A DNA stretch of 32,000 bases from Idiomarina loihiensis L2TR (GCF_000008465.1 NC_006512.1:120001-152000), one strand, 5' to 3'. Counted from the first letter of the stretch, positions 1,849-16,668 are shown. Made by a program: numbers and translations. The notes: generated from the letters alone by a model not told the origin.

Positions 1849-1912
1849 AAGTGAAAGTTACTATTTTTGATTTAGGACAAAAAAGAAAATCTAATTCAGG
1901 AGTTTGATTGTG

Positions 1913-2779
1913 ATGACAGGACGACAGTTTCTGGTTCATGCCGGAGCCGCTTTTCTATTGTTGTTTTCGTGGTTCGGCCAGGCTGAAGATACGCTGGATA
2001 CGGACGTTAACCAGTTAATAACCGCAGGCGGAACCTTAACCGATATCGTGTTTGCGCTGCATAAAGACGACAGCCTGATTGGCGTAGATACTTCCAGCAC
2101 TTCGCCTGCGGCTGTTAACCGGTTACCGAAAGTCGGTTACTACCGTAATTTATCCGCTGAGGGCGTTCTGAGTTTTGAGCCTGAACACCTGTGGGTGCTG
2201 GAAGGCGGCGGTAGCGATAAAGTTTTGCAGCAAATTGAGCGGGCCGGAGTTTCTGTGGTTGTATTTGATAAGCCGACGTCGCTTCAGGAGCTGTACGAGC
2301 TAATTGAAAACATGGCGGATCGCTTCGGTGCGCAAGCCGAAGGAAAGCAGGTGATTGCCGGTATCAAGTCGGATTTGACGACGACTAGCTCGCGTAAAGA
2401 GCCTTTGAAGGCTCTGTTCGTTCTGCAGGCGTCAGAGCGAGGCGTGGTGGCAGCCGGGACGGATACAGTACCGGATTTGCTTTTCAGTTACTCCGATATT
2501 AACAACGTGTTTTCTCACGTCGGATTCAAGACCGTTTCTACTGAATATTTACTGGCAGAACAGCCTGATTTTTTAGTTGCTCCTGAGCACGTGGTTAAAA
2601 GCCACGGCAGTAAAGAAGCGTTTTGTCAGGCGCAGGCACTTAAGCTACTGGAAGCCGGAAAAAACTGCCGGGTTTTGGTTATGGATTCGTTGCTGGCGCT
2701 GGGTATGACAACCCGCATTGCAGAGGCGCAACGAGTGGTTGCTGAGTTTGCCAATGAATTAGCGGCGGGCCGGGAGTAA
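1913..2779 (+). CDS. hmuT: Hemin ABC transporter periplasmic substrate-binding protein
   Basis: ORF 1904..2779. AGGAG at 1898-1902 favours a GTG 1910 or ATG 1913 start over TTG 1904. It has a signal peptide (FLVHAGAAFLLLFSWFGQA) and an N-terminus typical of class III (FecB/HmuT-like) binding proteins (ITAGGTLTDIVFAL). It sits directly upstream of the FecCD permease and ATPase. Confidence 0.8.
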   Translation: MTGRQFLVHAGAAFLLLFSWFGQAEDTLDTDVNQLITAGGTLTDIVFALHKDDSLIGVDTSSTSPAAVNRLPKVGYYRNLSAEGVLSFEPEHLWVLEGGGSDKVLQQIERAGVSVVVFDKPTSLQELYELIENMADRFGAQAEGKQVIAGIKSDLTTTSSRKEPLKALFVLQASERGVVAAGTDTVPDLLFSYSDINNVFSHVGFKTVSTEYLLAEQPDFLVAPEHVVKSHGSKEAFCQAQALKLLEAGKNCRVLVMDSLLALGMTTRIAEAQRVVAEFANELAAGRE

Positions 2780-2783
2780 GACT

Positions 2784-3800
2784 ATGCCGCTTGAACGTCG
2801 CTATTGGTTACTCGTCGGTGTTATGGGTATTGCTGTCAGCAGCGTTCTGTTGCTTTCCAGCGGACCGGTGATGTCGGACTGGCGGTTGCCCTTTATCTGG
2901 TTACCGGGAGTCTTGTCTGAAGCTACTGATATCCAAAAGACGGTATTAATCGATATTCGGTTACCCCGGTTGGTTTTAGGACTAATGGTGGGCGCGGTGT
3001 TGGCGCAGAGTGGTACTGCAATGCAAACCTTGTGTCGTAATCCGCTGGCTGATCCCGGGCTCATTGGTATTTCGGGGGGAGCGGCTGTATTCGCACTGGC
3101 AGTTATTGCCTTAGGTCCCGAGTTCGGGTTACAGGGACAGCTTTGGGTTTCCGGCGCGGCTTTTACCGGCGCTCTGCTGACCACCTTTGTGGTTTACCAT
3201 TTGGCTGGTGGGCGTTCCGGAGTTCATGTTGCCACCTTACTGCTGGCAGGTGTTGCCATCAATGCGCTGGCCGGTTCCATTCTCGGGTTGCTCAGCTACT
3301 ACGCTAACGATGACGCCCTGAGGCTTATGAGTTTCTGGCAGATGGGCTCTCTGGCCGGAGCCGACTGGCAACAGTTACCACTTGGCTTTTTGTTTATGGG
3401 CGTTAGCTGCGTTGCACTCTTTATTCACCGCCGGGCAATTAACACTCTGCTTTTAGGTGAACGACAAGCGCGTTACCTGGGCGTTAATGTCGGCACTCTG
3501 AAGCGTCGGATAATTTTTTTCGTTGCACTTGGTGTAGGCGGAGCTGTTGCCTTAACCGGCATGATTGGCTTTATCGGACTGATTATTCCCCACATTGCAC
3601 GAATGCTGGTTGGCGCTAATGTGCGCTGGTTAATGCCGGTATCCATGTTGTTTGGCGCAGCCATTTTAGTGCTTACTGACTGGTTGGCAAAAACTCTGGT
3701 TGCTCCGGCGGAATTACCTATTGGCATTATTACAGCGGCTATCGGCGCGCCATTTTTTATTTATTTGCTTATGAAGCAACGACGGAGGTTTTATGCTTGA
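2784..3800 (+). CDS. hmuU: Hemin ABC transporter permease (FecCD family)
   Basis: 338 aa and polytopic. FecCD-type signatures are present: IRLPRLVLGLMVGAVLAQSGTAMQ, NPLADPGLIGISGGAA and ELPIGIITAAIGAPFFIYLL. The stop overlaps the hmuV start by 8 nt. Confidence 0.9.
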   Translation: MPLERRYWLLVGVMGIAVSSVLLLSSGPVMSDWRLPFIWLPGVLSEATDIQKTVLIDIRLPRLVLGLMVGAVLAQSGTAMQTLCRNPLADPGLIGISGGAAVFALAVIALGPEFGLQGQLWVSGAAFTGALLTTFVVYHLAGGRSGVHVATLLLAGVAINALAGSILGLLSYYANDDALRLMSFWQMGSLAGADWQQLPLGFLFMGVSCVALFIHRRAINTLLLGERQARYLGVNVGTLKRRIIFFVALGVGGAVALTGMIGFIGLIIPHIARMLVGANVRWLMPVSMLFGAAILVLTDWLAKTLVAPAELPIGIITAAIGAPFFIYLLMKQRRRFYA

Positions 3801-4569
3801 TATCGATGTGTCGAATCTATCTATTGGTCGGCAGCAAGTGTTAACGTCACTGAACCTAAGTTTAGAAGCCCACCAATTTGTTGCCATTGTCGGCGAAAAC
3901 GGTGCGGGTAAGTCCACCTTTTTAAATATGTTAGCAGGGGAGCTTCCTTATAACGGTTCTATTTACTTAAATGGAAGAGAACTGAACTCGTGGGATGCTT
4001 TGAAACTGGCGCCGATAAGGGCGGTTATGGAGCAGCACCAGGCCGCGCCTGAAGGGTTATCGGTTAAGGAACTGGTGGCCATGGGACGATACTGGTCACA
4101 GGAGTCTGATGCCGATGCGGAGCAACGCGCAACCCAATGGTTAAGCCGCTTTGATTTAACTCCAATGGGGGAGCGTGGCATTGAAACCTTGTCTGGTGGT
4201 GAACAACAGCGGGCACATTTAGCCCGGTGTTTATGTCAGTTAGATAAAGATTTGCCTGGCGAACAATTGTTGCTATTGGATGAGCCGACCTCCGCACTGG
4301 ATGTGTATCATCAACATGCGGTGTTGCATGAAATTAAGTCGTTCAGCCAAAAAGGCAACCTGGTTCTGTCGGTTATGCACGATTTAAACCTGGCCTCGTT
4401 GTATGCCGACCAGGTCATAGTTTTAGGCAATAACTGTATTCAGCATGTTGACAGTCCCGAGAGTGTTTTTCGGGAAGATATTCTGGAAAGAACCTATCGT
4501 ACACCGGTGCACGTCAGCTCGCATCCAAGCTTTTTAAAGCCAATGATTTTCACCGAGCCAAGACATTAG
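3793..4569 (+). CDS. hmuV: Hemin import ATP-binding protein
   Basis: Walker A GENGAGKST, ABC signature LSGGEQQRAHLARCL and Walker B LLLLDEPTSALD. Third gene of the T-U-V unit. Confidence 0.9.
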   Translation: MLDIDVSNLSIGRQQVLTSLNLSLEAHQFVAIVGENGAGKSTFLNMLAGELPYNGSIYLNGRELNSWDALKLAPIRAVMEQHQAAPEGLSVKELVAMGRYWSQESDADAEQRATQWLSRFDLTPMGERGIETLSGGEQQRAHLARCLCQLDKDLPGEQLLLLDEPTSALDVYHQHAVLHEIKSFSQKGNLVLSVMHDLNLASLYADQVIVLGNNCIQHVDSPESVFREDILERTYRTPVHVSSHPSFLKPMIFTEPRH

Positions 4570-4582
4570 GGAGTATTTTATA

Positions 4583-5317
4583 ATGAATGAACGAATAAAA
4601 GCGGCGCGGGAAGCGCGAGTACTAGCACAAAATAGCGATACTGCAGTGCTGTCCACTATCTCGAAGAAGTTAATGGGATATCCGTTCGGCTCGGTATCAC
4701 CGTTTATGCTTTCTGCAGAAGGTCAGGTCATATTTTATGTGTCTGATATTGCCCAGCATGCCCGTAATTTATCAGTAGATAACCGTTTAAGTATTACCGT
4801 GTTCGATGCGGCTGAAAGCGGTGACCAGAATACTCACGGGCGACTGACGTTAACAGGAAATGCCCGGTTTTTAGTGGATGAGTCTTTAGGGGAATTGTAC
4901 TTCCAGCGTTTCCCCGACGCTTTAAGTTATCGCAATGCTCATGACTTTAAATTCTGGCAAATGGACGTTGAGCACATTCGTTATATTGGTGGCTTCGGCA
5001 AAATTTTCTGGATAAACCCTGCTGAATGGCTGCTACCTGAACCCCAATGGAATTCAACAGACGCATTGCAGATGATCCAGCATATGAATGATGACCATGC
5101 TGACGCTTGTGGCCTTATTTTGCGCCACCAGAAAGTGGAGTTCAGGAACTATGCAGGTAGCGTCAAAATGAGCAGTATTTATCCGGACGGGTTCCATCTA
5201 ATTGCCGATGAACGCAGTGTTTTCATTCCTTTTGAAACGGACTGTGTGACCTCTGGTGAGGTCAGAAAGCAATTAGTGAAAATGACCAATGCGGCCCGAA
5301 ATGTTATTGCAGCCTGA
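4583..5317 (+). CDS. HugZ-family haem utilisation / haem-degrading protein (PNPOx-like split barrel plus DUF2470-like C-terminal region)
   Basis: 244 aa. The N-terminal half resembles a pyridoxamine-5'-phosphate-oxidase-like fold (AVLSTISKKLMGYPFGSVSPF...RLTLTGNARF). The C-terminal MIQHMNDDHADA segment is typical of DUF2470. It lies 14 nt downstream of hmuV. Confidence 0.65.
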   Translation: MNERIKAAREARVLAQNSDTAVLSTISKKLMGYPFGSVSPFMLSAEGQVIFYVSDIAQHARNLSVDNRLSITVFDAAESGDQNTHGRLTLTGNARFLVDESLGELYFQRFPDALSYRNAHDFKFWQMDVEHIRYIGGFGKIFWINPAEWLLPEPQWNSTDALQMIQHMNDDHADACGLILRHQKVEFRNYAGSVKMSSIYPDGFHLIADERSVFIPFETDCVTSGEVRKQLVKMTNAARNVIAA

Positions 5318-5460
5318 CTTTTGAATTAATACCTTAATACAATAAGCTTAATAAAACTGTAAGTTAAACGAAATCCTATTGAAACACTACCACATCTATC
5401 ATACGTGCTTTCGTTTGGTAGCAACCCTGGCAGTCACTCACTATTAATAGGATTTTGTTA

Positions 5461-8283
5461 ATGAAAGCACGAAAATATCGTAATAAAAACTCAGTCAGTA
5501 AAAAAACAAAACTGAGTCAGGCAGTACAACAGGTTTTACTGGGTATGGCATTAAGTTCATCGGCCTATGCGCTTCAGGCTCAGGAGTTGAACGAAAATGA
5601 TAGTGCTGAAAAAGACGATATTGAAGTGATTGCAGTTAGCGGGAGCTACGTTAAAAGTCTGGAAAAAGCGGTTGATATCAAACGCTCCAACATCAGCTTT
5701 TCTGATTCGATAGTCGCGACAGATATTGCTGACTTCCCTGAACAAAACCTGGCAGAAGCTTTACAGCGCATGCCAGGGGTGACGATTGAGCGTAACAAAG
5801 GGCTGGGTTCAAGAGTCAACGTTCGCAGTTTGCCGACAGAGTTTACCCATGTATCCATTAACGGCCTGGCTACGGCCTCGGGTAGTGGCGGGCGTGATGT
5901 TGAATTCGATATTTTCGCATCCGAAATTATCCAGTCAGTAACCGTGAAAAAGTCGCCAACGGCGGCTGATGAAGAAGGCGGTATTGCAGGCTCTGTGCTT
6001 ATCTCCACTGCCAGACCGTTTGATTACGATGAAACACAGCTTGTGGCTTCGGTAGAAGCGGCTCACAACTCTATTTCAGAAGAGGTTGACCCGAAGTTCT
6101 CTTTCCTTGCCAGTGACACCTTCGGCGACTGGGGCGCGTTGGTATCGTTTTCACGTAGCGAACGCACCAACCGAACCGATTCTAACTCCGGCATCGATTT
6201 CCGACCACTGTCACGCTGGACTGAAAAGTCCGGTGATTCACAGTGGCAATCCGACCAAACCATTGCCGTGCTGGAACGAGACACTGGCGTTGTTATTGAT
6301 GATCCGTTAGATAGTGACGAAACCGGCCGTGCGGTTTTTATGAACAAGGTCGGTGACCGTGCTTATTTAAACGAGCAGGAAAAGTGGGGTGCCACAGCGT
6401 CTATCCAATACAAGCCCAGTAATGACTTCAGCCTAACGCTTGATGCCATGTTAGGCGGTTATGACAATACCGAGGACGAATACGATGCAGCCGCTTATTC
6501 AGCCTCAAGCGTCAGTGCGTTAGAACGCATTCACGAATACGATGACACGACCTTCTCTGAGTACGGCATGGTGGTGCTTTCAGATGTGTCTTATGCTGCA
6601 ACGCAGCACGAGTTTTTAAGCAAAGAAAACGTACACGAAACGGACTTTAGTCAGTTAAGTTTGTCGCTAGACTGGCAGCTTGGCGAATGGACGGTTACCG
6701 GGTTGATGGGGTATTCTGGGGCTGAGAAAACGTCGGACCGCACTAACCTAAAACATACGGCTTATGCGCCATCCAGAACGCGTTACACCAGCACTGGCGG
6801 TGAAACTATTCCGAGCGATAATCCTGACACTATCGATATGTATAATTCGCCCGGTTCGTACTTGTTTGATTTCTACGATGTTGACCTTGAAGAGATTACC
6901 GACGATAAATACGCCGCACAATTTGACTTCAGCCGCGGTATTTTCTGGGATGCCTTTCCTGCATTAGCTAAGGTCCAGTTCGGCGCGCGTTACACAGACA
7001 AGTCTAAAGAGCGGAACCTGGGCAATGTTCAGGTAAAAGGACCAACTGCGGGAGACAGCTCCTGGAGTGGTGAGCGAACGTTAGAGGACAGCGAGTTGAC
7101 GCTGATTTCAGACTTAGTACCAGGCGGCGCTTACTTGCCGGAAGTTGAAGGGAAAGGTGGCTGGAGTCAGGTCTCTAATGGCTATGCGCGTAATGAATTT
7201 CGTTACGACGGCTTTAATGTGCCGTTCCAGGACAACCAGTTTTACCGCGTGGACGAGGAAGTGCTGAGCATTTACGCAATGGCAGATTTTGAATTTAATA
7301 TCGGCCAGTTCCCAGTGTCTCTGAACACAGGCGTGCGCGCTGTTGATACCTCTGTTTTGTCTTTTGGTTACCATCAGGTTCAGATGCCTGACGGCAGCAC
7401 GGGTTACACAGATGAGCCCGTGTCTAAAAAAGGGAGCTATACAGAGGTTTTACCCAGCCTGAATATGGTGGTTGAACTAAGTGACAGCGTTTTGCTGCGA
7501 GCTGCTGCTTCCGAAACCTTTATTCGTCCTGCATTAGGCGACATTGCCTATAAACGGACAGTCAGTGTCAACGAGTTCAAATACTTCGATGGTAACCCTG
7601 ATTTGAAACCGACTTACGCCGACCAATGGGAGCTTGGTGTTGAGTGGTACTTAGATAACGGTGGTATTCTGGCTGCTTCCTATTTTGACAAAACCGTTGA
7701 AGGCGTCGTCCGTGAGTCTTTAACCGGGGTTGTAAAAGACGTGACCAAATACAATGATAACGGCACTCTGGATGGCGTTTATGACTTTGACGTGTATCAG
7801 AAGGTGAACGATGAAGGTTCTTACGATGTATCGGGAATTGAATTAATTGCTCAGTTCCCGCTTAAAGCGCTGCATTCGTCGTTAGAAGGTTTTGGCATTA
7901 ACTCTAACTACACCAAGCTGGACAATTCGTTAACGGGGTCGTCTGATTTGGGTATTCCAACACCACCGCCGGGGTTGGCTGAAACCACCTATAACTTTAC
8001 CGCTTATTATGAGAACAATAGCTTTGATGCACGGGTTTCATACAATTACAAAGACGACTACGTGGAGCGTATCGAACGTAGTATGTACCCAGTGTACCGC
8101 GACGCCTACGGTCAGGTTGATGTCTCTTTAGGTTACAAAATTAACGACTCAATTAAAGTGGTGGTTGAAGGAATTAACGTAACCGACGAAGCGACTAAAG
8201 GCTATACGATGGACCCTAAATTCCCGACCATGTATGAGTTTTCGGGACGTCGGATAAGCCTGGGCATTCGCGGCAGTATCTAA
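5461..8283 (+). CDS. TonB-dependent outer-membrane receptor, substrate unknown
   Basis: ORF 5455..8283 (TTG 5455 or ATG 5461). Signal peptide ends at AYALQA; TonB-box-like DDIEVIAVSGSY. Plug motifs: ATDIADFPEQNLAEALQRMPGVTIERNKG, VNVRSLP and IAGSVLIST. A long barrel follows (NPDLKPTYADQWELGVEWY). Confidence 0.85.
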   Translation: MKARKYRNKNSVSKKTKLSQAVQQVLLGMALSSSAYALQAQELNENDSAEKDDIEVIAVSGSYVKSLEKAVDIKRSNISFSDSIVATDIADFPEQNLAEALQRMPGVTIERNKGLGSRVNVRSLPTEFTHVSINGLATASGSGGRDVEFDIFASEIIQSVTVKKSPTAADEEGGIAGSVLISTARPFDYDETQLVASVEAAHNSISEEVDPKFSFLASDTFGDWGALVSFSRSERTNRTDSNSGIDFRPLSRWTEKSGDSQWQSDQTIAVLERDTGVVIDDPLDSDETGRAVFMNKVGDRAYLNEQEKWGATASIQYKPSNDFSLTLDAMLGGYDNTEDEYDAAAYSASSVSALERIHEYDDTTFSEYGMVVLSDVSYAATQHEFLSKENVHETDFSQLSLSLDWQLGEWTVTGLMGYSGAEKTSDRTNLKHTAYAPSRTRYTSTGGETIPSDNPDTIDMYNSPGSYLFDFYDVDLEEITDDKYAAQFDFSRGIFWDAFPALAKVQFGARYTDKSKERNLGNVQVKGPTAGDSSWSGERTLEDSELTLISDLVPGGAYLPEVEGKGGWSQVSNGYARNEFRYDGFNVPFQDNQFYRVDEEVLSIYAMADFEFNIGQFPVSLNTGVRAVDTSVLSFGYHQVQMPDGSTGYTDEPVSKKGSYTEVLPSLNMVVELSDSVLLRAAASETFIRPALGDIAYKRTVSVNEFKYFDGNPDLKPTYADQWELGVEWYLDNGGILAASYFDKTVEGVVRESLTGVVKDVTKYNDNGTLDGVYDFDVYQKVNDEGSYDVSGIELIAQFPLKALHSSLEGFGINSNYTKLDNSLTGSSDLGIPTPPPGLAETTYNFTAYYENNSFDARVSYNYKDDYVERIERSMYPVYRDAYGQVDVSLGYKINDSIKVVVEGINVTDEATKGYTMDPKFPTMYEFSGRRISLGIRGSI

Positions 8284-8286
8284 GCT

Positions 8287-10269
8287 ATGAAGTGTTTATT
8301 AAGTACGATGTTACTTGCGCTGCTGTTTATGGCAGCGCAAGTCAAAGCTGACAATAAAGAGGTTCCGGCAGTTGCTTTTATGCCGGACATTCACTTTCAC
8401 GATGTTTATGCCGACTTTAACGACGGTTCGTTCAAAGGCTTGCCGAACTCTCGTAGTAAGGATCACGCGACTATCCGCACTATGCAGGCTCAACTGCATT
8501 CTACCCGTCTGTTTAACGAAAACTACTTCGCACTGCTTGCCGCGCTAGATGATGCGGCAGCCAGAGGGATTAAACTCATTGCGCTTCCCGGCGACTTCAG
8601 CGATGACGGACAACAGGTGCACTTGCGCGGGCTGCAGAAAATACTCAAGCATTATCAGCAGAAGTACGATATGCGATTTTTTGCGGCACCGGGAAACCAT
8701 GACCCGGTTCGTCCTTTCAGTCGTCCCGCCGGTAAACCGGATTATTTGGGCACAGACGGCCACCGACAGCGAATATTCAGCAAAGGTGCCGCAGAATGTA
8801 CCGGGTATAAAGGCAAGCAGGCGGTTATTAAAACCGAAAACCCGCTGCCGACCATTTGCACAGAAGAAGTGCAGGAACTCGGGTATAAAGGTGTTTTATC
8901 GATATTGGGCGAGCACGGATTTTCGCCGCAGCCGGAATATATCTACTGGGAAACGCCGTTTAGCGGTTACAGCTACGAAGATTATGACTTAGCTAAGGGA
9001 AAAGCCAGCGCTGAACTCACTGCAAGACAATACGAAATTTGCAGCAACGGCAGCGGTGGCGAATTTAAGGCTGAAAACGCGGTTAACTGCGGGGAAATTA
9101 CCGATGCCAGTTATCTGGTGGAGCCGGTTGAGGGTTTGTGGTTACTGGCCATAGACGCCAATGTTTATATTCCTAAAGCGCAGACAGGCAAGAAGTCGTT
9201 ATCGGCTAATGACTTTCATGGCTCCGGTAACGCTGGCTATAACAAAGTGTTGACGCATAAAAAGCATTTAATGGGCTGGATAAAGGATATTGTAAAGCAA
9301 GCCGACGAGCGGGGAAAAACGCTGTTAGCTTTTAGCCATTTTCCTATGACAGAGTTTTATGACGGACAGTCTGACACGATATCTGAATTATTCGGTGAGG
9401 CGACGTTTCAACTGGCGAGGCGGCCAGATGACTCTGTTAGTAAACTGCTAGCCGAAACCGGGCTCAAAGTACACGTGGGCGGTCATATGCATATGAACGA
9501 CACCGGCGTTACCCGCAGCGGCGAACAGTTTTTAGTGAATATACAAGCACCGTCACTTGCGGCTTATGTGCCTGCGTATAAAGTTTTAAGGCCTGGTAAG
9601 TCGGGCTCGCTAGCAGTTGAAACCATTGTTATTAAAGAGGTTCCGCGTTTTAACGAACTGTTTGAGCACTATAGAGAAGAGTACCAGCAGCTGCTGTCGA
9701 CAGAGGCGGATAAACTCTGGGACAAAGAGGTTTTAACGGCAAAAAATTATCAGGAATTTACCAGTTGGCATATTCGCGAATTGACCCGCCAGCGTTTTCT
9801 TCCTGACGACTGGCCGGCTGATTTACGTGACTGGGTGTTTTCTCTAAACGGCGAGCAACTGTTGTCATTATCGCAGCTGACAGAGCAGAGATCCTGGCCG
9901 GAGGCTAAAGCAGCAGGCGAGTCTTTAGCTCGCTCTAAAGGCTTCAAACCGTCAGACTTTTCGCAGTGGACGGGCTTTGAATTTGCGGTCGATTTCTACC
10001 GCATTCGTAATGCTGGCCGGTTAGCACTCAAGGATATTTCGAAGTCCCGTTTGCGTCAGTATCAGTTACTTGCCGTTAGCCTAAGCGAGCTCGCGAAAAA
10101 GGTTAAGGCGCCTGAACAAGTGGTTCAGGAAACCGAGAGTAAACACCAGTTGGCGGCTGCTCTGGCGCATCGTTTCGGACCGGTGCTGGATATTTTCCTT
10201 GCGCTGCAAGAAGGTGAGCCTGACGATAATTTCATTATAGACTGGCAATCGGGTGAGCTTAGCCGTTAA
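8287..10269 (+). CDS. Secreted calcineurin-like metallophosphoesterase (660 aa) with intact catalytic motifs
   Basis: Signal peptide MKCLLSTMLLALLFMAAQVKA. All five metallophosphoesterase motifs are canonical: PDIHFHD, LPGDFSDDG, APGNHDP, AFSHFP and GGHMHMN. Four Cys lie in the insert between motifs III and IV, consistent with periplasmic disulfides. It starts 4 nt after the receptor stop. Confidence 0.8.
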   Translation: MKCLLSTMLLALLFMAAQVKADNKEVPAVAFMPDIHFHDVYADFNDGSFKGLPNSRSKDHATIRTMQAQLHSTRLFNENYFALLAALDDAAARGIKLIALPGDFSDDGQQVHLRGLQKILKHYQQKYDMRFFAAPGNHDPVRPFSRPAGKPDYLGTDGHRQRIFSKGAAECTGYKGKQAVIKTENPLPTICTEEVQELGYKGVLSILGEHGFSPQPEYIYWETPFSGYSYEDYDLAKGKASAELTARQYEICSNGSGGEFKAENAVNCGEITDASYLVEPVEGLWLLAIDANVYIPKAQTGKKSLSANDFHGSGNAGYNKVLTHKKHLMGWIKDIVKQADERGKTLLAFSHFPMTEFYDGQSDTISELFGEATFQLARRPDDSVSKLLAETGLKVHVGGHMHMNDTGVTRSGEQFLVNIQAPSLAAYVPAYKVLRPGKSGSLAVETIVIKEVPRFNELFEHYREEYQQLLSTEADKLWDKEVLTAKNYQEFTSWHIRELTRQRFLPDDWPADLRDWVFSLNGEQLLSLSQLTEQRSWPEAKAAGESLARSKGFKPSDFSQWTGFEFAVDFYRIRNAGRLALKDISKSRLRQYQLLAVSLSELAKKVKAPEQVVQETESKHQLAAALAHRFGPVLDIFLALQEGEPDDNFIIDWQSGELSR

Positions 10270-10285
10270 GTTAATGTAAGGGTTT

Positions 10286-10314
10286 TTGACATCCCCTCCC
10301 CACAACTCCATAAT
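10286..10314 (+). promoter_or_regulatory. Near-consensus sigma70 promoter, TTGACA-N17-CATAAT
   Basis: TTGACA at 10286-10291, an exact 17-nt spacer, then CATAAT at 10309-10314. It lies about 40 nt upstream of ATG 10355, in the 85-bp gap after the phosphoesterase stop. Confidence 0.5.
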
Positions 10315-10340
10315 CCTTAATCTTTAGGCTTTGTGGGGAG
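10296..10340. repeat. Perfect 10-bp inverted repeat CTCCCCACAA-N25-TTGTGGGGAG bracketing the -10 element
   Basis: Left arm 10296-10305, right arm 10331-10340. The arms are exact reverse complements and cannot be extended on either side. Confidence 0.9.
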
Positions 10341-10354
10341 TAAACGGCAGCAAG

Positions 10355-11419
10355 ATGGCAGCTTCAGCGGAAGAAGAAAAACAATACAAAGCCTCGTGGA
10401 AACGCTTAACGCTATTTAGTGTGTTATTTGTTTTACTCACGGCTGCCGGGTTTTACGCCATTTATGACCACTTTTCCGGTCGCAGCCTAACCTTCGATTT
10501 TCGTTTGTTTGCCCCTGAAGTTTTAAGTGCCGCAGTCTTGCTGTTACTGGTTTACTTCGCCGCCGACGGTTTGCGGCTTTACTACACTTTGCGCGCTCTG
10601 GGTTACCGTATTCCTAAAAAAGCCATGGCTAAACTGGTATTTATTAATATCTTTTTCTCCAATATTACCCCTATGGCCACTGGTGGCGGTTTCGCGCAGG
10701 TTTGGTTCTTACACGAGCACGGCGTGCCTATTGGGCGGGCGACCGCTGCCACTACTATTCGTACGGTGTTGGCTATTTTCTTTATTTTTTCGCTGACGCC
10801 GGTGTTCTTGCTGGTGCTGGAGCCACTGCAGAACAAAGCTATTATTGGTGAAATTGGTACGGCTCTTGCCGTTTTCATTGTGCTTTATCTGCTCTTCTTC
10901 GCGGTGGTTTTGTTGCGGGCACATTGGTTAATTGGGCCGCTAAGCTATTTATGTAAAGCGGTGCATAAGCTGCAACTGATTAGTCCTGAGCGTCATCTGC
11001 GCTGGCAATACAAAACTCGCCGCGAAATGCTGCGTTTCTCCCGGAGTTTTTCGGAGTATTGTCGCGGCTCTAAAGTGGCTATTGCGCTGTCGGTATTGTC
11101 CACCGTCGTTTTTCTGCTCAGCTTATTCAGTTTTCCCGCGCTGCTAATGTGGGGTTTAGGATACGACGTTGATTACCTCGTCAGCCTGGGACTGCTGGTG
11201 GTTACCACCTTTATCATGTATTTCGCGCCAACGCCCGGTGCTTCTGGAATTTCCGAAGGTGTGTTTGGTAGCTTTTTTAATGACATTTTAGCCAATAACC
11301 ATTTACTGTTAGTCACCTTTAGCTGGCGCTTTTTAACCATTTATCTTGGTATGTTATTGGGACTCTTTATTTTACAGCGCTACTTAGTTCAGTCGGCTAA
11401 AGTGCAGGGCATACAATGA
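10355..11419 (+). CDS. UPF0104 / LPG_synthase_TM-type (MprF flippase-domain-like) polytopic membrane protein
   Basis: ORF 10331..11419; ATG 10355 is preferred because TTG 10331 lies inside the inverted-repeat arm. It has about 8 hydrophobic segments. The family-like core is LRLYYTLRALGYRI...FFSNITPMATGGGFAQVWFL...GRATAATTIRT. Its stop overlaps the next start (ATGA at 11416). Confidence 0.6.
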   Translation: MAASAEEEKQYKASWKRLTLFSVLFVLLTAAGFYAIYDHFSGRSLTFDFRLFAPEVLSAAVLLLLVYFAADGLRLYYTLRALGYRIPKKAMAKLVFINIFFSNITPMATGGGFAQVWFLHEHGVPIGRATAATTIRTVLAIFFIFSLTPVFLLVLEPLQNKAIIGEIGTALAVFIVLYLLFFAVVLLRAHWLIGPLSYLCKAVHKLQLISPERHLRWQYKTRREMLRFSRSFSEYCRGSKVAIALSVLSTVVFLLSLFSFPALLMWGLGYDVDYLVSLGLLVVTTFIMYFAPTPGASGISEGVFGSFFNDILANNHLLLVTFSWRFLTIYLGMLLGLFILQRYLVQSAKVQGIQ

Positions 11420-13635
11420 ATAAAACCAAGTTACTGAAAGTCCTGTTTTACCTCAACATTGCGGTTGTGGTTGGGCTTATTGGCTATAAAATTTATTTGA
11501 ACCTGGTGACTTCTGAATTTGAGGCGGAGCATACCGAACAGCTCTCAGACATTAGTGCCCGGCTGGAAGGACAGGACAGTTACAGCTTTGCTGTCGTGGG
11601 TAATATCAATAATTCGGTTGGTATTTTCGAGCGTCGCATTATTCCTATGTTGAACGACACCGACATTGATTTTTTAGTGTCTGCGGGGAATGCTGTGAGC
11701 AGTGGAGGAGAAGACAAATACCGGGCAATAAAAGGTACTCTGTCGCGGCTGGATATGCCGTATTTACTGACCTTCGGTAACAATGAGTATGAAGAGTTTG
11801 GCAGCTTCCGCTTTTATGACCATTACGGTCCGCATTTTTTCAGTTTTACTGCCGATGACAGCCGCTTTATTTTCTTAGACAGCACGGGAAAAACGCCATG
11901 GCAATGGCAGCTTCGCTGGTTAACCGATATTCTTAAAGCCGACGATTCAAAGCATCGCTTTGTTTTTATTGGTCACCCACCTTTAGAGCCTGAAGAAGAG
12001 TTTTTTTTAGCCCAGGAGGACGATTTCCTGCAACCCATGGAGTTCCGTCATGCGTTACTGCAGACAATAAGCAACTTCGGTGTTGATCGCGTCTTTTCAT
12101 CCAATATCTCTATTTACTCAGAGCGTGAGCACAACGGTATTCCCTATATCACTACCGGTGGTGCGGGTGGTCTGGTACTGAATCAGGATGAAAGCTTTTA
12201 TCATTATGTGAAAGTAACAGTGAATGCCGATGGCTCGGTTGAGCACTCTGTTGAAGAGCTGGAAATTGGTCAGCACCCCATTCTGAAACAGCTGGAAAGC
12301 CTGTGGTTCTTTATTCATTCGTTATTTTACGTGGGCTACCTGAATTTTATTCTGCTGGTGAGCCTGTTTTTGGTTATTAGTACCAAATTGTACAACGCGG
12401 TATTCGTCGGTAAAGATTACTACCCGGACTACGATATTGACCCGCAGCCCTGGTTCAAAAAGCCGTTGCGCGTGGCCATGTTCACGAATAACTATCTGCC
12501 TTTTATCGGTGGTGTGCCAATTTCTATCGAGCGCCTGCGTCTGGGATTAGTTAAGCTCAAAGATAAGGTATTGGTTGTTGCGCCGCGCTATCAGCAAAGT
12601 AGTGAAAAAGAAGAGCATGTGGTGCGTATGCCGTCGCTGTTTTCTTTTGGTGAAAAGAGTGAGTTTCAGTTTGCCAATATTTTCTCCGGTGCCGTGCGTA
12701 AAAAGGTTAAAGCCTTTAAACCGGATATTATTCACGTTCACCATCCGTTCTGGATAGGTTCGCTTGGGGTCTTTATTGCGCGTCGCCTGAAAGTGCCAGT
12801 GGTTTATACTTATCACACGCGGCTAGAACATTATGCGCACTTTGTGTTTTTACCCGGTTCGTTGTTCCGCAATATTATTGCGCACTTTTTGGTGCGTCGC
12901 TTTGCCAACAAATGCGATGGCGTAATTGTGCCGACGCAATCGACGGAAGAATACCTGCGTATGATAGGGGTTAAGAAGCCGACCTTTGTACAGCCAACAG
13001 GTATTGAGTTTGAGCGTTTCCAGCAAGTTGACGACAAGCAAATAGAGGAGCTGCGCCAGCAACAAAAGCTAGGGGATGAAACGGTATTTGTTAGTGTGTC
13101 CCGGTTGTCGAATGAGAAAAATATCGACTTTATGATAGAGGCGGTGGCGCAACTGAAAGATCAAACCGATAAGCCGTTCCGCTTGCTGATTGTGGGCGAC
13201 GGTCATCAACGCCACCGGTTACAGGAACGCATCGATAACATGAAACTGCAGCAGTACATTACTCTGGTAGGCTCAGTTCCGCCTGAGCAAATGGCCGCCT
13301 GGTATCAGCTAGGAGACGCTTTCCTATTTGCCTCGCAGTCAGAAACTCAGGGCATGGTCATTCTGGAAGCTATGGCTGCGGGCTTACCCGTGGTTGCGGT
13401 GCGCTCTAGCGGTATCGACGATGTTGTTGAAGACGGGCATAACGGTTTTAAGACACCGGCTAAGCAGGCTTTATGGTGTGAGCGGGTGAAACAGTTACTG
13501 GATGACGAGGCGTTACGCCAGAGCCTGGCAGAAAATGCTCTGGCTTTTGCCCGTGATTATTCGGTGGAAAAATTCAGTGATGACGTACGCCATATTTACG
13601 CGGAAACTCTGGCTCGGTATCACGAGAAAAAATAG
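11416..13635 (+). CDS. Bitopic fusion protein: N-terminal TM helix, degenerate metallophosphoesterase-like domain, TM segment, C-terminal GT4 (group 1) glycosyltransferase
   Basis: TM1 spans about residues 9-30 (preceded by K3, K5, K8). Residues about 55-275 align motif-for-motif with calcineurin-like phosphoesterases, but the ligands are changed: VVGNINN (DxH expected), SAGNAVSSGG (GDxxD), FGNNEYE (GNH[DE]), FIGHPP (His kept) and FSSNISIY (GHxH). A hydrophobic segment follows at about 296-322 (LWFFIHSLFYVGYLNFILLVSLFLVIS). The GT4 domain starts at about residue 350 (LRVAMFTNNYLPFIGGVP) and has the EX7E motif ETQGMVILE followed by AMAAGLPVVA. Confidence 0.8.
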   Translation: MNKTKLLKVLFYLNIAVVVGLIGYKIYLNLVTSEFEAEHTEQLSDISARLEGQDSYSFAVVGNINNSVGIFERRIIPMLNDTDIDFLVSAGNAVSSGGEDKYRAIKGTLSRLDMPYLLTFGNNEYEEFGSFRFYDHYGPHFFSFTADDSRFIFLDSTGKTPWQWQLRWLTDILKADDSKHRFVFIGHPPLEPEEEFFLAQEDDFLQPMEFRHALLQTISNFGVDRVFSSNISIYSEREHNGIPYITTGGAGGLVLNQDESFYHYVKVTVNADGSVEHSVEELEIGQHPILKQLESLWFFIHSLFYVGYLNFILLVSLFLVISTKLYNAVFVGKDYYPDYDIDPQPWFKKPLRVAMFTNNYLPFIGGVPISIERLRLGLVKLKDKVLVVAPRYQQSSEKEEHVVRMPSLFSFGEKSEFQFANIFSGAVRKKVKAFKPDIIHVHHPFWIGSLGVFIARRLKVPVVYTYHTRLEHYAHFVFLPGSLFRNIIAHFLVRRFANKCDGVIVPTQSTEEYLRMIGVKKPTFVQPTGIEFERFQQVDDKQIEELRQQQKLGDETVFVSVSRLSNEKNIDFMIEAVAQLKDQTDKPFRLLIVGDGHQRHRLQERIDNMKLQQYITLVGSVPPEQMAAWYQLGDAFLFASQSETQGMVILEAMAAGLPVVAVRSSGIDDVVEDGHNGFKTPAKQALWCERVKQLLDDEALRQSLAENALAFARDYSVEKFSDDVRHIYAETLARYHEKK

Positions 13636-13652
13636 CGCTGCAGCTAGCGCTA
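13633..13652 (-). terminator. Possible intrinsic terminator hairpin between convergent genes
   Basis: TAGCGCT-gcagct-AGCGCTA forms a 7-bp stem with a 6-nt loop. On the minus strand it is followed by TTTTTTCTC. It overlaps both stop codons (TAG 13633-13635 plus strand, CTA 13650-13652 minus strand). The stem is short, so the call is weak. Confidence 0.35.
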
Positions 13653-14105
13653 CAAAATGTGGTTACCAAAGACCAGTAATTGGCAGACGATGACAATGGT
13701 CGTTAATAACACCCGTATACGGTAGTAGCCCATATAAGCTGTCATAGCCGAACTGCGAGCCAGCTTTTGTTCAAAGTACAGAACCAAGGCAAAGCCCACC
13801 ATCTGCATACCTAATGACCAGGCCGGTGCGTTAATTAAAATTGTGAACCAGGCCGCTAAAGCGAAAACATTGCTTAATAACAGTAAACCTGTGGTTTTTT
13901 CGCTTTCCGCGCGGTGCAGTGCCCGGCCCCATAGAGTACCGCCCAGAAAACTGAGAATAACAGCGCCGTAAGTAATTAAAAACTCTAAAGGTGAAATTCC
14001 CCACCAGGTTCCGGTATGCATTAAAGCCGCAAGCGACGATGCCAGAAAGGGAATAAGCCCTAAAAAGCCCAGAGTATAAATTAGCCAGTTTTTACCTTTG
14101 TTCAT
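13650..14105 (-). CDS. DUF3429-like small integral membrane protein
   Basis: ORF 13650..14120 (GTG); ATG at 14105 gives MNKGKNWLIYTLGFLGLIPF. It has about 4-5 TM segments. The segment YGAVILSFLGGTLWG matches my memory of the DUF3429 signature. Confidence 0.55.
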   Translation of the reverse strand: MNKGKNWLIYTLGFLGLIPFLASSLAALMHTGTWWGISPLEFLITYGAVILSFLGGTLWGRALHRAESEKTTGLLLLSNVFALAAWFTILINAPAWSLGMQMVGFALVLYFEQKLARSSAMTAYMGYYRIRVLLTTIVIVCQLLVFGNHIL

Positions 14106-14222
14106 AAAAAATGAGTCCACCAGAAGTCAGTTATTATTATTTTACGGTCATTGTTCAATTTACGTTTAGTCCAATTCTAAATGACTTATGTAATGAATAC
14201 TAAACAACAACTCGTATTCATT

Positions 14223-15542
14223 ATGGCAGATTATCGGTTAGGCCTATTTGTATTTCGGAATGATCTCAGGGTTGAAGACAACCTGGCGCTTTATGAGGCC
14301 GCGCAGCGCAGTGAAACACTTATCTGCTGCTTTTGTTTTAATCCGACACAGAATAAGTACGGTCATTATGGTATTCCGGCAATGGGTAAACATCGTTTTA
14401 CCTTTTTGCAGCAGAGCTTAAAGCAACTGCGAACCGAGCTGGAAATGCGTGGACAAAAACTTATTGTTTTGACTGGGACATTTGACCGAATTTTAACCGA
14501 ACTCATTTCCGAACGTCAGGTGGATGCGATATTCCTGAGCCAGCATCAGGGTTACTATGAACGGCTTCAACTGGGTTTGCTGCAGCAACGGTTTCCGTTT
14601 CTGCCTTTTCATGAAACACCAAACAACACCTTGTTTTCAGAGCAGGAACTGCCGTTTGAGCTAGCGGACTTGCCGGAAACCTTTTCTCAGTTTCGGAAAA
14701 AAGTAGAGCCGTTGAGCCGTAACTTTTCGGTGCAGCCGGTAAACGCTTTGCCTTCATTACCGAAGAACATCAGTTATCCGGGGTTCAAGGCTGAAACTCT
14801 GAATGAATTGGCGTCAGATGACTTTGAAGGTGGAGAAAGAGCCGCCTTAACGCATTTAACAAGCTACTTCTCCGGTGAGTCAGCAGGCACTTATAAACAA
14901 ACACGAAATGCCTTAGACGACTTTTCGAGTTCGACTAAGTTTTCGCCCTGGCTTGCGCAGGGTTGTCTTTCTGTCCGGCAAATAATGGCGGCGTTAAGGG
15001 CGTATGAAACAGAGTTTGGTGAGAATGAATCCAGCTACTGGATAAGTTTTGAATTATTGTGGCGCGAGTACTTCTTCTGGTACGCACTGAAGCACGGGAA
15101 ACGCCTGTTCGCTTTTTCCGGCCTCTCCGGTAAGTCACCCAAAACCAGCTTTTATTCTGAAAGGTTTCAGAAATGGTGCTCTGGCAATACGCCGTATCCT
15201 ATAGTTAACGCCTGCATGAAGCAGTTGAATGCCACCGGTTATATGTCGAACCGGGGGCGCCAACTGGTTGCCAGTTGTTTTGTGCACGAGCTGAGTCTGG
15301 ACTGGCGCTACGGCGCTGCCTATTTTGAACAGCAGCTGATTGATTACGATGTTTCCTCCAACTGGGGAAACTGGCAGTATCTTGCGGGTGTGGGAGCCGA
15401 CCCCAGAGGGCATCGTCAGTTTAACCTGGAAAAGCAGACCGAACGCTACGACCCGGATAATGAGTTTATTGAGCGCTGGGCCGGCGACTTGTCCGGGCAG
15501 CCCATAGACAGCGTTGATGCCGCAGACTGGCCGGTGCGGTGA
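14223..15542 (+). CDS. DASH-family cryptochrome (photolyase/cryptochrome superfamily)
   Basis: ORF 14181..15542. ATG 14223 gives MADYRLGLFVFRNDLRVEDN, the usual photolyase N-terminus. The FAD-binding C-terminal motifs are TGYMSNRGRQLVASCF and DWRYGAAYFEQQLIDYDVSSNWGNWQY. Confidence 0.85.
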   Translation: MADYRLGLFVFRNDLRVEDNLALYEAAQRSETLICCFCFNPTQNKYGHYGIPAMGKHRFTFLQQSLKQLRTELEMRGQKLIVLTGTFDRILTELISERQVDAIFLSQHQGYYERLQLGLLQQRFPFLPFHETPNNTLFSEQELPFELADLPETFSQFRKKVEPLSRNFSVQPVNALPSLPKNISYPGFKAETLNELASDDFEGGERAALTHLTSYFSGESAGTYKQTRNALDDFSSSTKFSPWLAQGCLSVRQIMAALRAYETEFGENESSYWISFELLWREYFFWYALKHGKRLFAFSGLSGKSPKTSFYSERFQKWCSGNTPYPIVNACMKQLNATGYMSNRGRQLVASCFVHELSLDWRYGAAYFEQQLIDYDVSSNWGNWQYLAGVGADPRGHRQFNLEKQTERYDPDNEFIERWAGDLSGQPIDSVDAADWPVR

Positions 15543-15660
15543 AAATAACTAAAAGCCGTTGAGGCTGGCGCATGAGTTTAAGTTGCCTTAGGGAAAGTCA
15601 GCCGATACTATTTCGCCCCTTTGATTTATAACGGCGCTACGGTTTTTGGGCACACCACCT

Positions 15661-16668
15661 ATGAAGAAACAGATATTGGTTACCGGAGGCTGCGGATTCA
15701 TTGGTTCGCACACGGTTGTTGAGTTGATACTTAGCGGCTACCAGGTGATTGTGATTGATGACCTGAGTAACAGCAACGCCTCGGTAATTGATAAGATTCA
15801 GTGTATTACGGGTGAGCGACCAGAATTTCATCAGGTTGATATCTGCAATCGGGATGCGCTGACCAAACTATTTAAACAATACGCTTTCGATGCCGTTATG
15901 CATTTTGCGGCACTTAAAAATCCTCAGGAAAGTTACCACTTAAAAGAGAAATATTTTCTGACCAATGTGGAAGGAACACGGAGACTGCTAGCGGTAATGG
16001 AAGACTGTTCAGTTAACCATTTAATTTTTTCCTCTTCAGCCGTTGTTTACGGCAACCCGTCGTGCGTCCCTGTTGCTGAATCGGCTCCGGCCGGAGCGAC
16101 AACCAATCCCTATGGCGAGAACAAATATCGATCCGAGTGTGATTTGGCTGAGTTTTGTGAGAAAAACCTCGCTTTCTCGGCTATAAGTTTGCGTTATTTT
16201 AATCCGGCAGGAGCTCATCCGTCGGGAGTTATTGGTGAGCAACCCATTAAACCTGCAGCTAATTTGATCCCGGCCATAGGCAATGTAATAACCCGAAAAG
16301 TTGACTCTGTTCAGGTTTATGGTGGTGACTATTCGACCTGTGATGGCACAGCAATACGTGACTACATTCATGTTTGTGACGTAGCAAAAGGTCATGTTGC
16401 GGCATTGGAAGCGGGGTTTGCCCGCACCGGACACCATATCTTTAACTTGGGAACCGGCAAGGGCGAGTCGGTACTGGGCGTGATCCATGCATTCGAACAA
16501 GCAAGTGGGCAAATTATTCCGGTTAACTTTTCAGAACGTCGCCAGGGCGATGTGGCAAGCTGTTACGCTCAGGCTGATAAAGCACTTCAGGAATTAAATT
16601 GGAGGGCCGAACATGATCTGCAGACGATAGCCCGGGATTACTGCCATTGGTTATCGTTATCTAATTGA
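15661..16668 (+). CDS. galE: UDP-glucose 4-epimerase
   Basis: ATG 15661 gives MKKQILVTGGCGFIGSH (Rossmann GxxGxxG). Also present are SSSAVVYGNP, the catalytic YxxxK in PYGENKYRSE, and LRYFNPAGAH. Confidence 0.9.
   Translation: MKKQILVTGGCGFIGSHTVVELILSGYQVIVIDDLSNSNASVIDKIQCITGERPEFHQVDICNRDALTKLFKQYAFDAVMHFAALKNPQESYHLKEKYFLTNVEGTRRLLAVMEDCSVNHLIFSSSAVVYGNPSCVPVAESAPAGATTNPYGENKYRSECDLAEFCEKNLAFSAISLRYFNPAGAHPSGVIGEQPIKPAANLIPAIGNVITRKVDSVQVYGGDYSTCDGTAIRDYIHVCDVAKGHVAALEAGFARTGHHIFNLGTGKGESVLGVIHAFEQASGQIIPVNFSERRQGDVASCYAQADKALQELNWRAEHDLQTIARDYCHWLSLSN

Follow-up and report, generated by a model that had tools for sequence, protein, structure and literature searches.

Several described bacterial systems join the synthesis of a modified membrane lipid to a membrane protein that may move it. 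The gpgSDF genes of Pseudomonas aeruginosa, whose product is GlcN-PG (PG, phosphatidylglycerol), and the hexSDF genes of Clostridioides difficile each combine a glycosyltransferase, a deacetylase and a UPF0104 flippase-like protein, which make and, as has been proposed, export the modified lipid (PMC12713373). PplT domains, the domain type of UPF0104 proteins, are frequently fused to GT-B domains (bioRxiv 10.1101/2022.03.11.483950). In MprF, an aminoacyl-PG synthase is fused to a PplT domain, so that synthesis at the inner leaflet is coupled to a PF03706 translocator. Here we describe a two-gene module from Idiomarina loihiensis L2TR, contained in a 32,000-nt stretch of DNA that we call the window (GCF_000008465.1, NC_006512.1:120001–152000; positions are counted from its first letter). 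Its first gene encodes a UPF0104/PplT flippase-like protein, and its second a 739-aa protein in which a metallophosphoesterase (MPE) fold without its metal ligands is fused to a glycosyltransferase domain of family GT4. The module is real and widespread, and for it we infer a lipid product and a role of the dead domain. What is new is the conserved ligand-less phosphoesterase fold, which, by the topology that we favour, has the membrane between it and the glycosyltransferase to which it is fused. Literature searches found no paper describing a fusion of such a fold with GT4, in agreement with a preliminary description of this locus, which knew of no characterised example.

Both open reading frames lie where that description had put them, on the same strand (10331/10355–11419 and 11416–13635), and the reading frame, Pfam and an AlphaFold 2 (AF2) model agree on the domain order proposed for the fusion product (11416–13635, plus strand): transmembrane helix, MPE fold, transmembrane helix, GT4. 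The first helix (residues ~4–31; 11425–11508) is of the signal-anchor type, follows K3, K5 and K8, and appears as a Kyte–Doolittle peak of 2.03 and as AF2 helix 3–31. The pseudo-metallophosphoesterase domain, hereafter the N-domain, covers residues ~38–285 (11527–12270), is supported by AF2, Foldseek and alignment, and is predicted to be extracytoplasmic. An interfacial helix and the second transmembrane helix (residues ~288–330; 12277–12405), which would take the chain back to the cytoplasm, are supported by a second hydrophobic stretch at residues 296–327 (Kyte–Doolittle 2.39) and by a kinked pair of AF2 helices, 288–306 and 308–330. The GT4 domain, of the retaining GT-B type and with an EX7E motif, occupies 12469–13626. 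All of these elements are on the plus strand, and the full-length model (pLDDT 84) shows the same succession of helix 3–31, globular domain, kinked helix 288–330 and GT4.

The N-domain has a metallophosphoesterase fold, as had been suggested. Pfam Metallophos (PF00149) matches residues 78–191 weakly but above threshold (E=1.4e-4, 22.8 bits against a gathering cutoff of 21.5). A model of residues 36–290, built with AF2 from an alignment of 80 sequences, reaches a pLDDT of 95.6 and in Foldseek retrieves Rv0805 (E=2.8e-14), purple acid phosphatases and GpdQ (TM-score 0.70–0.72). Ligand-less folds are also among these matches, namely GAP50 (3tgh, rank 19) and, from rank 35, entries for VPS29. By sequence, phmmer against the PDB gives GpdQ as the sole match. 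A HMMER search with residues 40–295 collected 1,698 cluster representatives (50% identity) at E ≤ 1e-3. The closest are 720–770-aa proteins with the same fusion, in which GT4 was confirmed by Pfam for cluster representatives P0131, P0144 and P0187; farther out (E ~1e-27 to 1e-16, 26–35% identity) are standalone proteins of 270–360 aa with an N-terminal anchor, solid Metallophos scores and the motifs GD/GD/GNH/H/HxH intact. NCBIfam models place these active relatives nearest the SpdA/CpdA class III phosphodiesterases. The families named among the N-domain matches are CpdA, SpdA and GpdQ; no LpxH/PlcP-like family was found among them, the PlcP sequence itself lying outside the comparison.

With the anchored CpdA/SpdA/GpdQ-like enzymes the N-domain shares the N-terminal anchor, a motif in the place of G-D-x-x-N-S, the motifs KY, LD and Q..WL, and a GGAGG-like motif. 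Unlike it, they retain the full ligand set, are standalone and have no flippase beside them in the two contexts examined, short contigs that contained neither a flippase nor a fusion-type GT4, but a TreT-like glycosyltransferase and an alpha/beta hydrolase. A split ancestral arrangement, with an active phosphoesterase, a GT4 and a flippase as separate neighbours, was thus not seen in these two contigs, which are too short to speak against it. We propose that the MPE domain arose from membrane-anchored CpdA/GpdQ-like phosphodiesterases, with loss of their di-metal site.

All residues that had been named for the motifs stand where they were placed: G62-N63-I-N65, G91-N92-A-V-S95, G121-N122-N123-E124, H187 and S229-N230-I-S232. 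Alignment to the active relatives sets the register, with N63 at the Asp of motif I, N92 at the Asp of motif II, N122–N123 against G-N-H of motif III, and N230 and S232 against H-x-H of motif V. The claim that the metal ligands are replaced therefore stands for motifs I, II, III (His) and V, where Asn or Ser occupies the ligand positions. Its companion, that the His of motif IV survives, is uncertain because H187, which is kept in 52 of 79 family members, is one position out of register: the motif IV His of the active relatives (RFVFMH-VP) aligns with G186, and H187 follows one residue later. Two further qualifications concern single positions. The Asn of motif III (N122) is kept in this protein, where the other ligand positions read N63, N92, G186/H187, N230 and S232. 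Position 65 is not a ligand lost relative to the immediate ancestors, because the active relatives (P0152–P0270, most with an N-terminal anchor) also lack the canonical His of motif I and carry Lys, Arg, Gln or His there (G-D-x-[KRQH]-N-S). The characteristic MPE fold is thus present and the di-metal ligand set of motifs I–V is absent; judged by its motifs, the protein is a structural member of PF00149 and not a canonical enzyme.

The loss is a property of the family. A scan of one genome per species yielded 566 relatives, from which the top 80 loci for the Idiomarina query were kept, so that the list of host taxa is a biased sample. All 80 kept loci have the full-length fusion architecture, at 39–91% identity and aligned over essentially all 739 residues; the nearest relative is from I. 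ramblicola (91%), followed by loci of I. abyssalis and Idiomarina sp. HP20-50 (89–90%). Around 12 further metagenomic cluster representatives (50% identity, 720–770 aa) show the same architecture and likewise degenerate motifs. Hosts include Idiomarina, Marinobacter, Halomonas/Vreelandella, Guyparkeria, Halothiobacillus, Marinospirillum, Methylophaga, Thioalkalivibrio, Saccharospirillum and marine Pseudomonas. The fusion is also found in Alphaproteobacteria (Fodinicurvata, Jhaorihella, Erythrobacter), Betaproteobacteria, Desulfobacterota, Gemmatimonadota and Synergistaceae, as well as in Halanaerobium, Halanaerobacter, Clostridia, Ilyobacter (Fusobacteria) and Mcinerneyibacterium. Within this sample the hosts are overwhelmingly marine or halophilic.

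Across 79 aligned N-domains, the motif II position 92 is Asn in every one, and the motif I position 63 is Asn in 73, Glu in 4 and Asp in 2. At the Asn-ligand position of motif III (122) Glu or Ala prevails and Asn occurs only three times, with Asn (38) or His (28) at the following position, 123. Motif IV has Gly at 186 in 60 sequences and His at 187 in 52; in motif V, the position of the first His (230) is Asn in 57 and that of the second (232) is variable. An intact ligand set occurs in none of the 79 fusions and the family consensus retains no ligand, whereas the standalone relatives are intact. At the same time conservation in the N-domain falls only a little short of that in GT4, and the domain is therefore not decaying (mean pairwise identity 47.7% and 54.8%, respectively, in 78 full-length proteins). 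At least 95% conserved are G62, N66, S67, G91, N92, E124, D155, Q165, W168 and the GGAGG motif. Most of the best conserved N-domain residues are common to the active relatives; specific to the family is neutral Asn in place of two Asp. This Asn-for-Asp pattern fits a pocket that would keep its shape, and perhaps a ligand, but not di-metal chemistry. By all these comparisons the fusion is genuine and ancient, and its N-domain is evidently under strong purifying selection.

The positive-inside argument of the preliminary description, by which K3, K5 and K8 would leave the MPE domain in the periplasm, extends to the homologues. In 33 of 33, the N-terminal tail carries two to four Lys or Arg and no acidic residue, and the 20 residues following the first transmembrane helix are net acidic. 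GT4, because it depends on a nucleotide sugar, has to be on the cytoplasmic side. With a single crossing before and another after it, the pseudo-phosphoesterase domain would therefore be extracytoplasmic, and we favour an N-in topology with the MPE domain outside the inner membrane.

The C-terminal part (residues 352–737) is a complete GT4 enzyme. It has both Pfam modules (Glyco_transf_4, 364–534, E=2e-30; Glycos_transf_1, 543–708, E=1.4e-40), a GT-B fold that in Foldseek retrieves MshA, BshA, PimA and WaaG, as well as PglA, and an intact EX7E motif, E643...E651, as had been noted, with both Glu at least 90% conserved in the 33 homologues. The best curated family is NF049988, the alMGS-type alpha-monoglucosyl-diacylglycerol synthases (Acholeplasma laidlawii Mgs), which is matched over model positions 2–393 of 398 (E=2.3e-63) at 215 bits against a cutoff of 400; NF053787, the GlcNAc-PG synthase GpgS, comes next at 132 bits against 480. 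Both are families of membrane-glycerolipid glycosyltransferases. Neither score reaches equivalog level, nor does that of the partner protein against the GpgF model (31.5 bits against 320). Like alMGS, the fusion has a retaining GT4 with EX7E, but at 215 of 400 bits it is not an equivalog, and we know of no described alMGS member with two transmembrane helices and an extracytoplasmic domain.

The gene upstream was described as an MprF-flippase-domain-like membrane protein, and two models bear this out, PF03706 (LPG_synthase_TM; E=6.7e-35, 121 bits against a cutoff of 33.4) and TIGR00374 ('flippase-like domain'; 87 bits against 43.2). Sequence and profile searches of the PDB with this protein gave no match, MprF included, so the link to MprF comes from the Pfam and TIGR models. 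Several hydrophobic helices make the protein polytopic. Mechanically the open reading frame extends over 10331–11419; the ATG at 10355, which gives 354 aa (10355–11419, plus strand), fits the start M-[AT]-A-S-A-E-E-E conserved among Idiomarina orthologues. The ATGA overlap reported between the two genes is present at 11416–11419 (plus strand), where the junction reads CAATGAAT, and suggests translational coupling. The exact 4-nt overlap was deduced in 24 other loci, and an overlap of some length occurs in 46 of 59.

Immediately upstream of this gene is a sigma-70-type promoter-like site, TTGACA-17 nt-CATAAT (10286–10314, plus strand), 41 nt 5′ of the ATG. It matches the consensus at 11 of 12 positions and is the top-scoring site within 5200–14300. 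Its −35 and −10 hexamers are invariant across four Idiomarina species (the window and loci L009, L010 and L062), while the sequence farther upstream is unrelated. When the alignment is read by eye, L009 and L010 have a terminator-like hairpin with a T-run just 5′ of the promoter-like site, the terminator of another gene. At the other end, a terminator scan of the minus strand placed a G+C-rich terminator-like hairpin, assigned to neither strand, at 13632–13655, directly after the stop codon (13633–13635). It separates the fusion gene from a convergent gene for a DUF3429 membrane protein (13650–14120, minus strand), which has the hairpin in common with it and as a neighbour is conserved only in Idiomarina (L009, L010 and L062). 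Bounded in the window by promoter-like site and hairpin, and with no deacetylase gene (gpgD/hexD) between them, the module is by its sequence features an autonomous two-gene operon with its own conserved sigma-70 promoter.

The coupling of the fusion to a flippase-like gene, first noted for this single locus, holds across phyla. Of the 76 loci with sufficient flanking sequence, 59 have a PF03706 gene directly before the fusion gene and in the same orientation, mostly overlapping (estimated gaps of −23 to +68 nt), from Gammaproteobacteria to Halanaerobium, Clostridia and Ilyobacter. One Halanaerobium locus (L083) has two tandem PF03706-type genes 5′ of the fusion (2817–3890 and 3878–4957). Distant metagenomic members also have a PF03706 gene beside them, overlapping for P0144 and divergent for P0187; for the P0131 lineage, no flippase remnant was found in the 210 nt 5′ of the gene, where the contigs end. 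Around the pair only two families recur in the 80 loci, the fusion and PF03706 themselves, and no third conserved gene family was found beside them.

In 11 loci that lack the PplT gene, a gene for a DedA/VTT-family membrane protein (PF09335) directly adjoins the fusion (L040, L049, L050, L052, L055, L056, L063, L067, L068, L070 and L074; for example L049:7270–8007, minus strand). An adjacent DedA/VTT gene occurs in none of the PplT-containing loci. The hosts are Halomonas/Vreelandella, Allohahella, Thioalkalivibrio, Saccharospirillum, Pseudohongiella and Aliidiomarina, and in a neighbour-joining tree 10 of the 11 fusions form one clade. Because this clade is nested among PplT-linked lineages, the PplT pairing is ancestral and one clade swapped to DedA. 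DedA/VTT proteins are implicated in lipid translocation. The swap, to us the most telling of the new observations, looks like a non-orthologous replacement of a putative lipid translocator. As a pattern of gene content, it speaks for a synthase that requires a translocator, from whichever family. It is this swap, together with the synteny, that points to lipid translocation by the PplT partner.

By analogy, a closer logic than the one first proposed would be that of a synthase with a PplT flippase, as in gpgSDF, hexSDF and MprF. As in the first two, a cytoplasmic GT4 lipid glycosyltransferase and a UPF0104/PplT protein would share one small operon, and the GT4 matches the GpgS model (132 bits) and its partner, weakly, that of GpgF (31.5 bits). 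Unlike them, the module has no deacetylase gene, its flippase gene comes first, which reverses the gene order, and its scores are far below the equivalog cutoffs; GpgS, moreover, is soluble, whereas the glycosyltransferase here spans the membrane and bears a predicted extracytoplasmic pseudo-phosphoesterase domain. MprF resembles the module in coupling inner-leaflet synthesis to a PF03706 translocator and differs in transferring an aminoacyl instead of a glycosyl group and in joining both functions in one polypeptide; the bifunctional MprF model scores 17.6 bits. For an MPE fold without catalysis, there are parallels in VPS29 of retromer and in Plasmodium GAP50, which are non-catalytic scaffolds or anchors. 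These are eukaryotic and of unrelated function, with no glycosyltransferase fusion or link to lipid synthesis.

The other genes around the module in the window are not shared by the family. A 660-aa Metallophos (PF00149) protein (8287–10269, plus strand), by eye with a signal-peptide-like N-terminus and intact-looking N-terminal motifs, begins 3 nt after a gene for a TonB-dependent receptor (5455–8283, plus strand). With the receptor, genes at 1904–5317 (plus strand) for Peripla_BP_2, a FecCD permease, an ABC ATPase and a HugZ-like CREG/DUF2470/PNPOx protein look like an iron/heme uptake cluster, to which we also assign the 660-aa protein. This phosphoesterase had been named as a neighbouring active enzyme. 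It is a conserved neighbour in none of the 80 loci, and we rejected it and the TonB receptor as parts of the module, as both are absent there from all loci, including those of three Idiomarina species; the pair appears specific to the arrangement of this genome. On the downstream side, an NAD-dependent epimerase, taken as GalE-like, is encoded 2–4 kb from the module in the window (15646–16668, plus strand), in L009 (10636–11742) and in L010 (7882–8922), and might be a source of the sugar donor. In the window, though not in L010, a photolyase/cryptochrome-family gene (14181–15542) is inserted between module and epimerase.

We give about an even chance to the following account, in which the two-gene operon makes a glycosylated membrane lipid and moves the product across the inner membrane. 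At the cytoplasmic face, GT4 would use a nucleotide sugar to add a hexose to a glycerolipid, with diacylglycerol (DAG) as the most likely acceptor and PG as the alternative. The product would then be moved to the periplasmic leaflet by the co-translated PplT/UPF0104 protein, as has been proposed for MprF, GpgF and HexF, or in one clade by DedA. There the dead MPE domain, tethered by the two transmembrane helices, would most likely bind a lipid head group or the partner translocator non-catalytically. In this way it would take hold of the lipid once flipped, or signal the state of the outer leaflet or the periplasm to the synthase. A role as a periplasmic ligand-binding or regulatory pseudo-enzyme, as had been suggested, seems plausible for this domain from its pattern of loss and conservation.

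Several points weigh against this account. The score of GT4 is below the curated cutoff of every named lipid-glycosyltransferase family, so that a lipid acceptor is a guess, and the GT4 family also holds enzymes with polyprenyl-linked and soluble acceptors. The DedA gene and the fusion gene converge, without co-transcription, and six loci with ample flanking sequence have neither PplT nor DedA nearby. In the remodelled pocket, Asn, Glu and His might yet coordinate one cation, which makes 'non-catalytic' a presumption. Product and acceptor, topology, flipping and the ligand of the dead domain are all things that we infer, and for GpgF itself flipping has only been proposed (PMC12713373).

These points leave room for other readings, of which the one given in the preliminary description was a fused and rewired PlcP–Agt pair, induced at phosphate limitation and replacing phospholipids with glycolipids. 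The module does bring together an MPE fold and a lipid-type GT4, as plcP-agt operons do (PMC4796936, PMC8231724) in Sinorhizobium, SAR11, Phaeobacter and Pseudomonas; its host is a marine heterotroph, and the likely product, a glycosyl-DAG, overlaps. Yet the N-domain here is of another subfamily, with active relatives that are CpdA/SpdA/GpdQ-like and not LpxH/PlcP-like, is predicted to lie across the membrane from the glycosyltransferase, and lacks the ligands that phospholipid hydrolysis in the manner of PlcP requires; its integral partner is a translocator gene. The GT4, at ~390 aa, resembles the ~400-aa alMGS type, its nearest curated family, and not the 334-aa Agt/GTcp (PMC8231724), although length alone sets it apart from the latter. 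A search for the E. coli-type Pho box with up to three mismatches gave 3 matches against 2.3 expected, one of them at 10344–10361, which is chance level; a near-consensus, conserved sigma-70 promoter is present. The distribution, too, tracks saline habitats, including those of anaerobic Halanaerobiales, and not oligotrophic low-phosphate waters. We therefore consider PlcP–Agt very doubtful as an explanation and no longer the closest logic. A different enzyme in the same place would be a repurposed extracytoplasmic one, mononuclear or metal-independent, that modifies the flipped lipid in the manner of the GpgD/HexD deacetylase. Such an enzyme would account for the strong and specific conservation (N92 invariant, N63, N66, S67 and E124 nearly so, H123 or H187 in many members); the known analogues place a modifying enzyme between synthase and flippase, and the two-gene module offers no other candidate. 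It is nevertheless quite improbable, as the consensus of the fusion family keeps none of the di-metal ligands found in the nearest active relatives, the former ligand positions 122, 186/187 and 232 vary freely, which is unexpected in a catalytic site, and the ligand-less MPE folds among the structural matches, VPS29 and GAP50, are scaffolds.

The acceptor could also be of another kind. If GT4 acted on a polyprenyl-phosphate-linked or other envelope precursor, PplT or DedA would recycle or flip the carrier and the N-domain would dock polymer machinery. Bacterial DedA proteins have been linked to undecaprenyl-phosphate flipping, which would suit the clade in which DedA replaces PplT, and GT4 includes enzymes of Und-PP-glycan synthesis: the PglA, PglH and PglJ families score weakly, PglA is in the fold search, and a galE-like gene is nearby in Idiomarina. 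Beside the pair, however, no initiating phosphoglycosyl transferase, Wzx/Wzy or polymerase is conserved in the 80 loci, the best full-coverage family matches are DAG and PG glycosyltransferases, and the characterised PplT systems cited above (MprF, gpgSDF and hexSDF) all act on glycerolipids. We regard this alternative as unlikely. An origin of the fusion in misassembly, a frameshift or gene decay has a negligible probability, since it runs uninterrupted through 80 independent genomes, complete chromosomes among them, and many metagenomes, and its N-domain almost equals GT4 in conservation.

Within the glycolipid synthesis and translocation account, a more specific and decidedly speculative proposal, which we hold possible though improbable, is that the dead fold is a periplasmic head-group receptor that would read the outer leaflet or the periplasmic ionic milieu and control GT4 by way of its two transmembrane helices, a trans-bilayer feedback in salt-adapted bacteria. 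To our knowledge, genes have not been assigned for the classical glycolipid of moderate halophiles. The product may be this lipid, glucosyl-phosphatidylglycerol or glycosyl-DAG (Stern & Tietz 1978, as cited in PMC5732225), and by analogy it would fit a binding pocket derived from a glycerophosphodiesterase. If the receptor proposal is true, the swap from PplT to DedA would show that both families translocate the same glycolipid.

The movement of lipids across the bacterial inner membrane is a long-standing gap, for which PplT/UPF0104 and DedA/VTT proteins are the leading candidates and assays are hard. A family whose partner is PplT in most lineages but DedA in a single clade offers comparative evidence for equivalent roles of the two, and the compact, portable two-gene module would be a tractable system for these flippase candidates. 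In the fusion, bacteria also provide a clear example of a conserved pseudo-enzyme that the membrane, by the predicted topology, separates from the active part of its own polypeptide, which hints at trans-bilayer sensing or at hand-off of the product. That the module is concentrated in marine and halophilic taxa suggests a part in adapting the envelope to salt.

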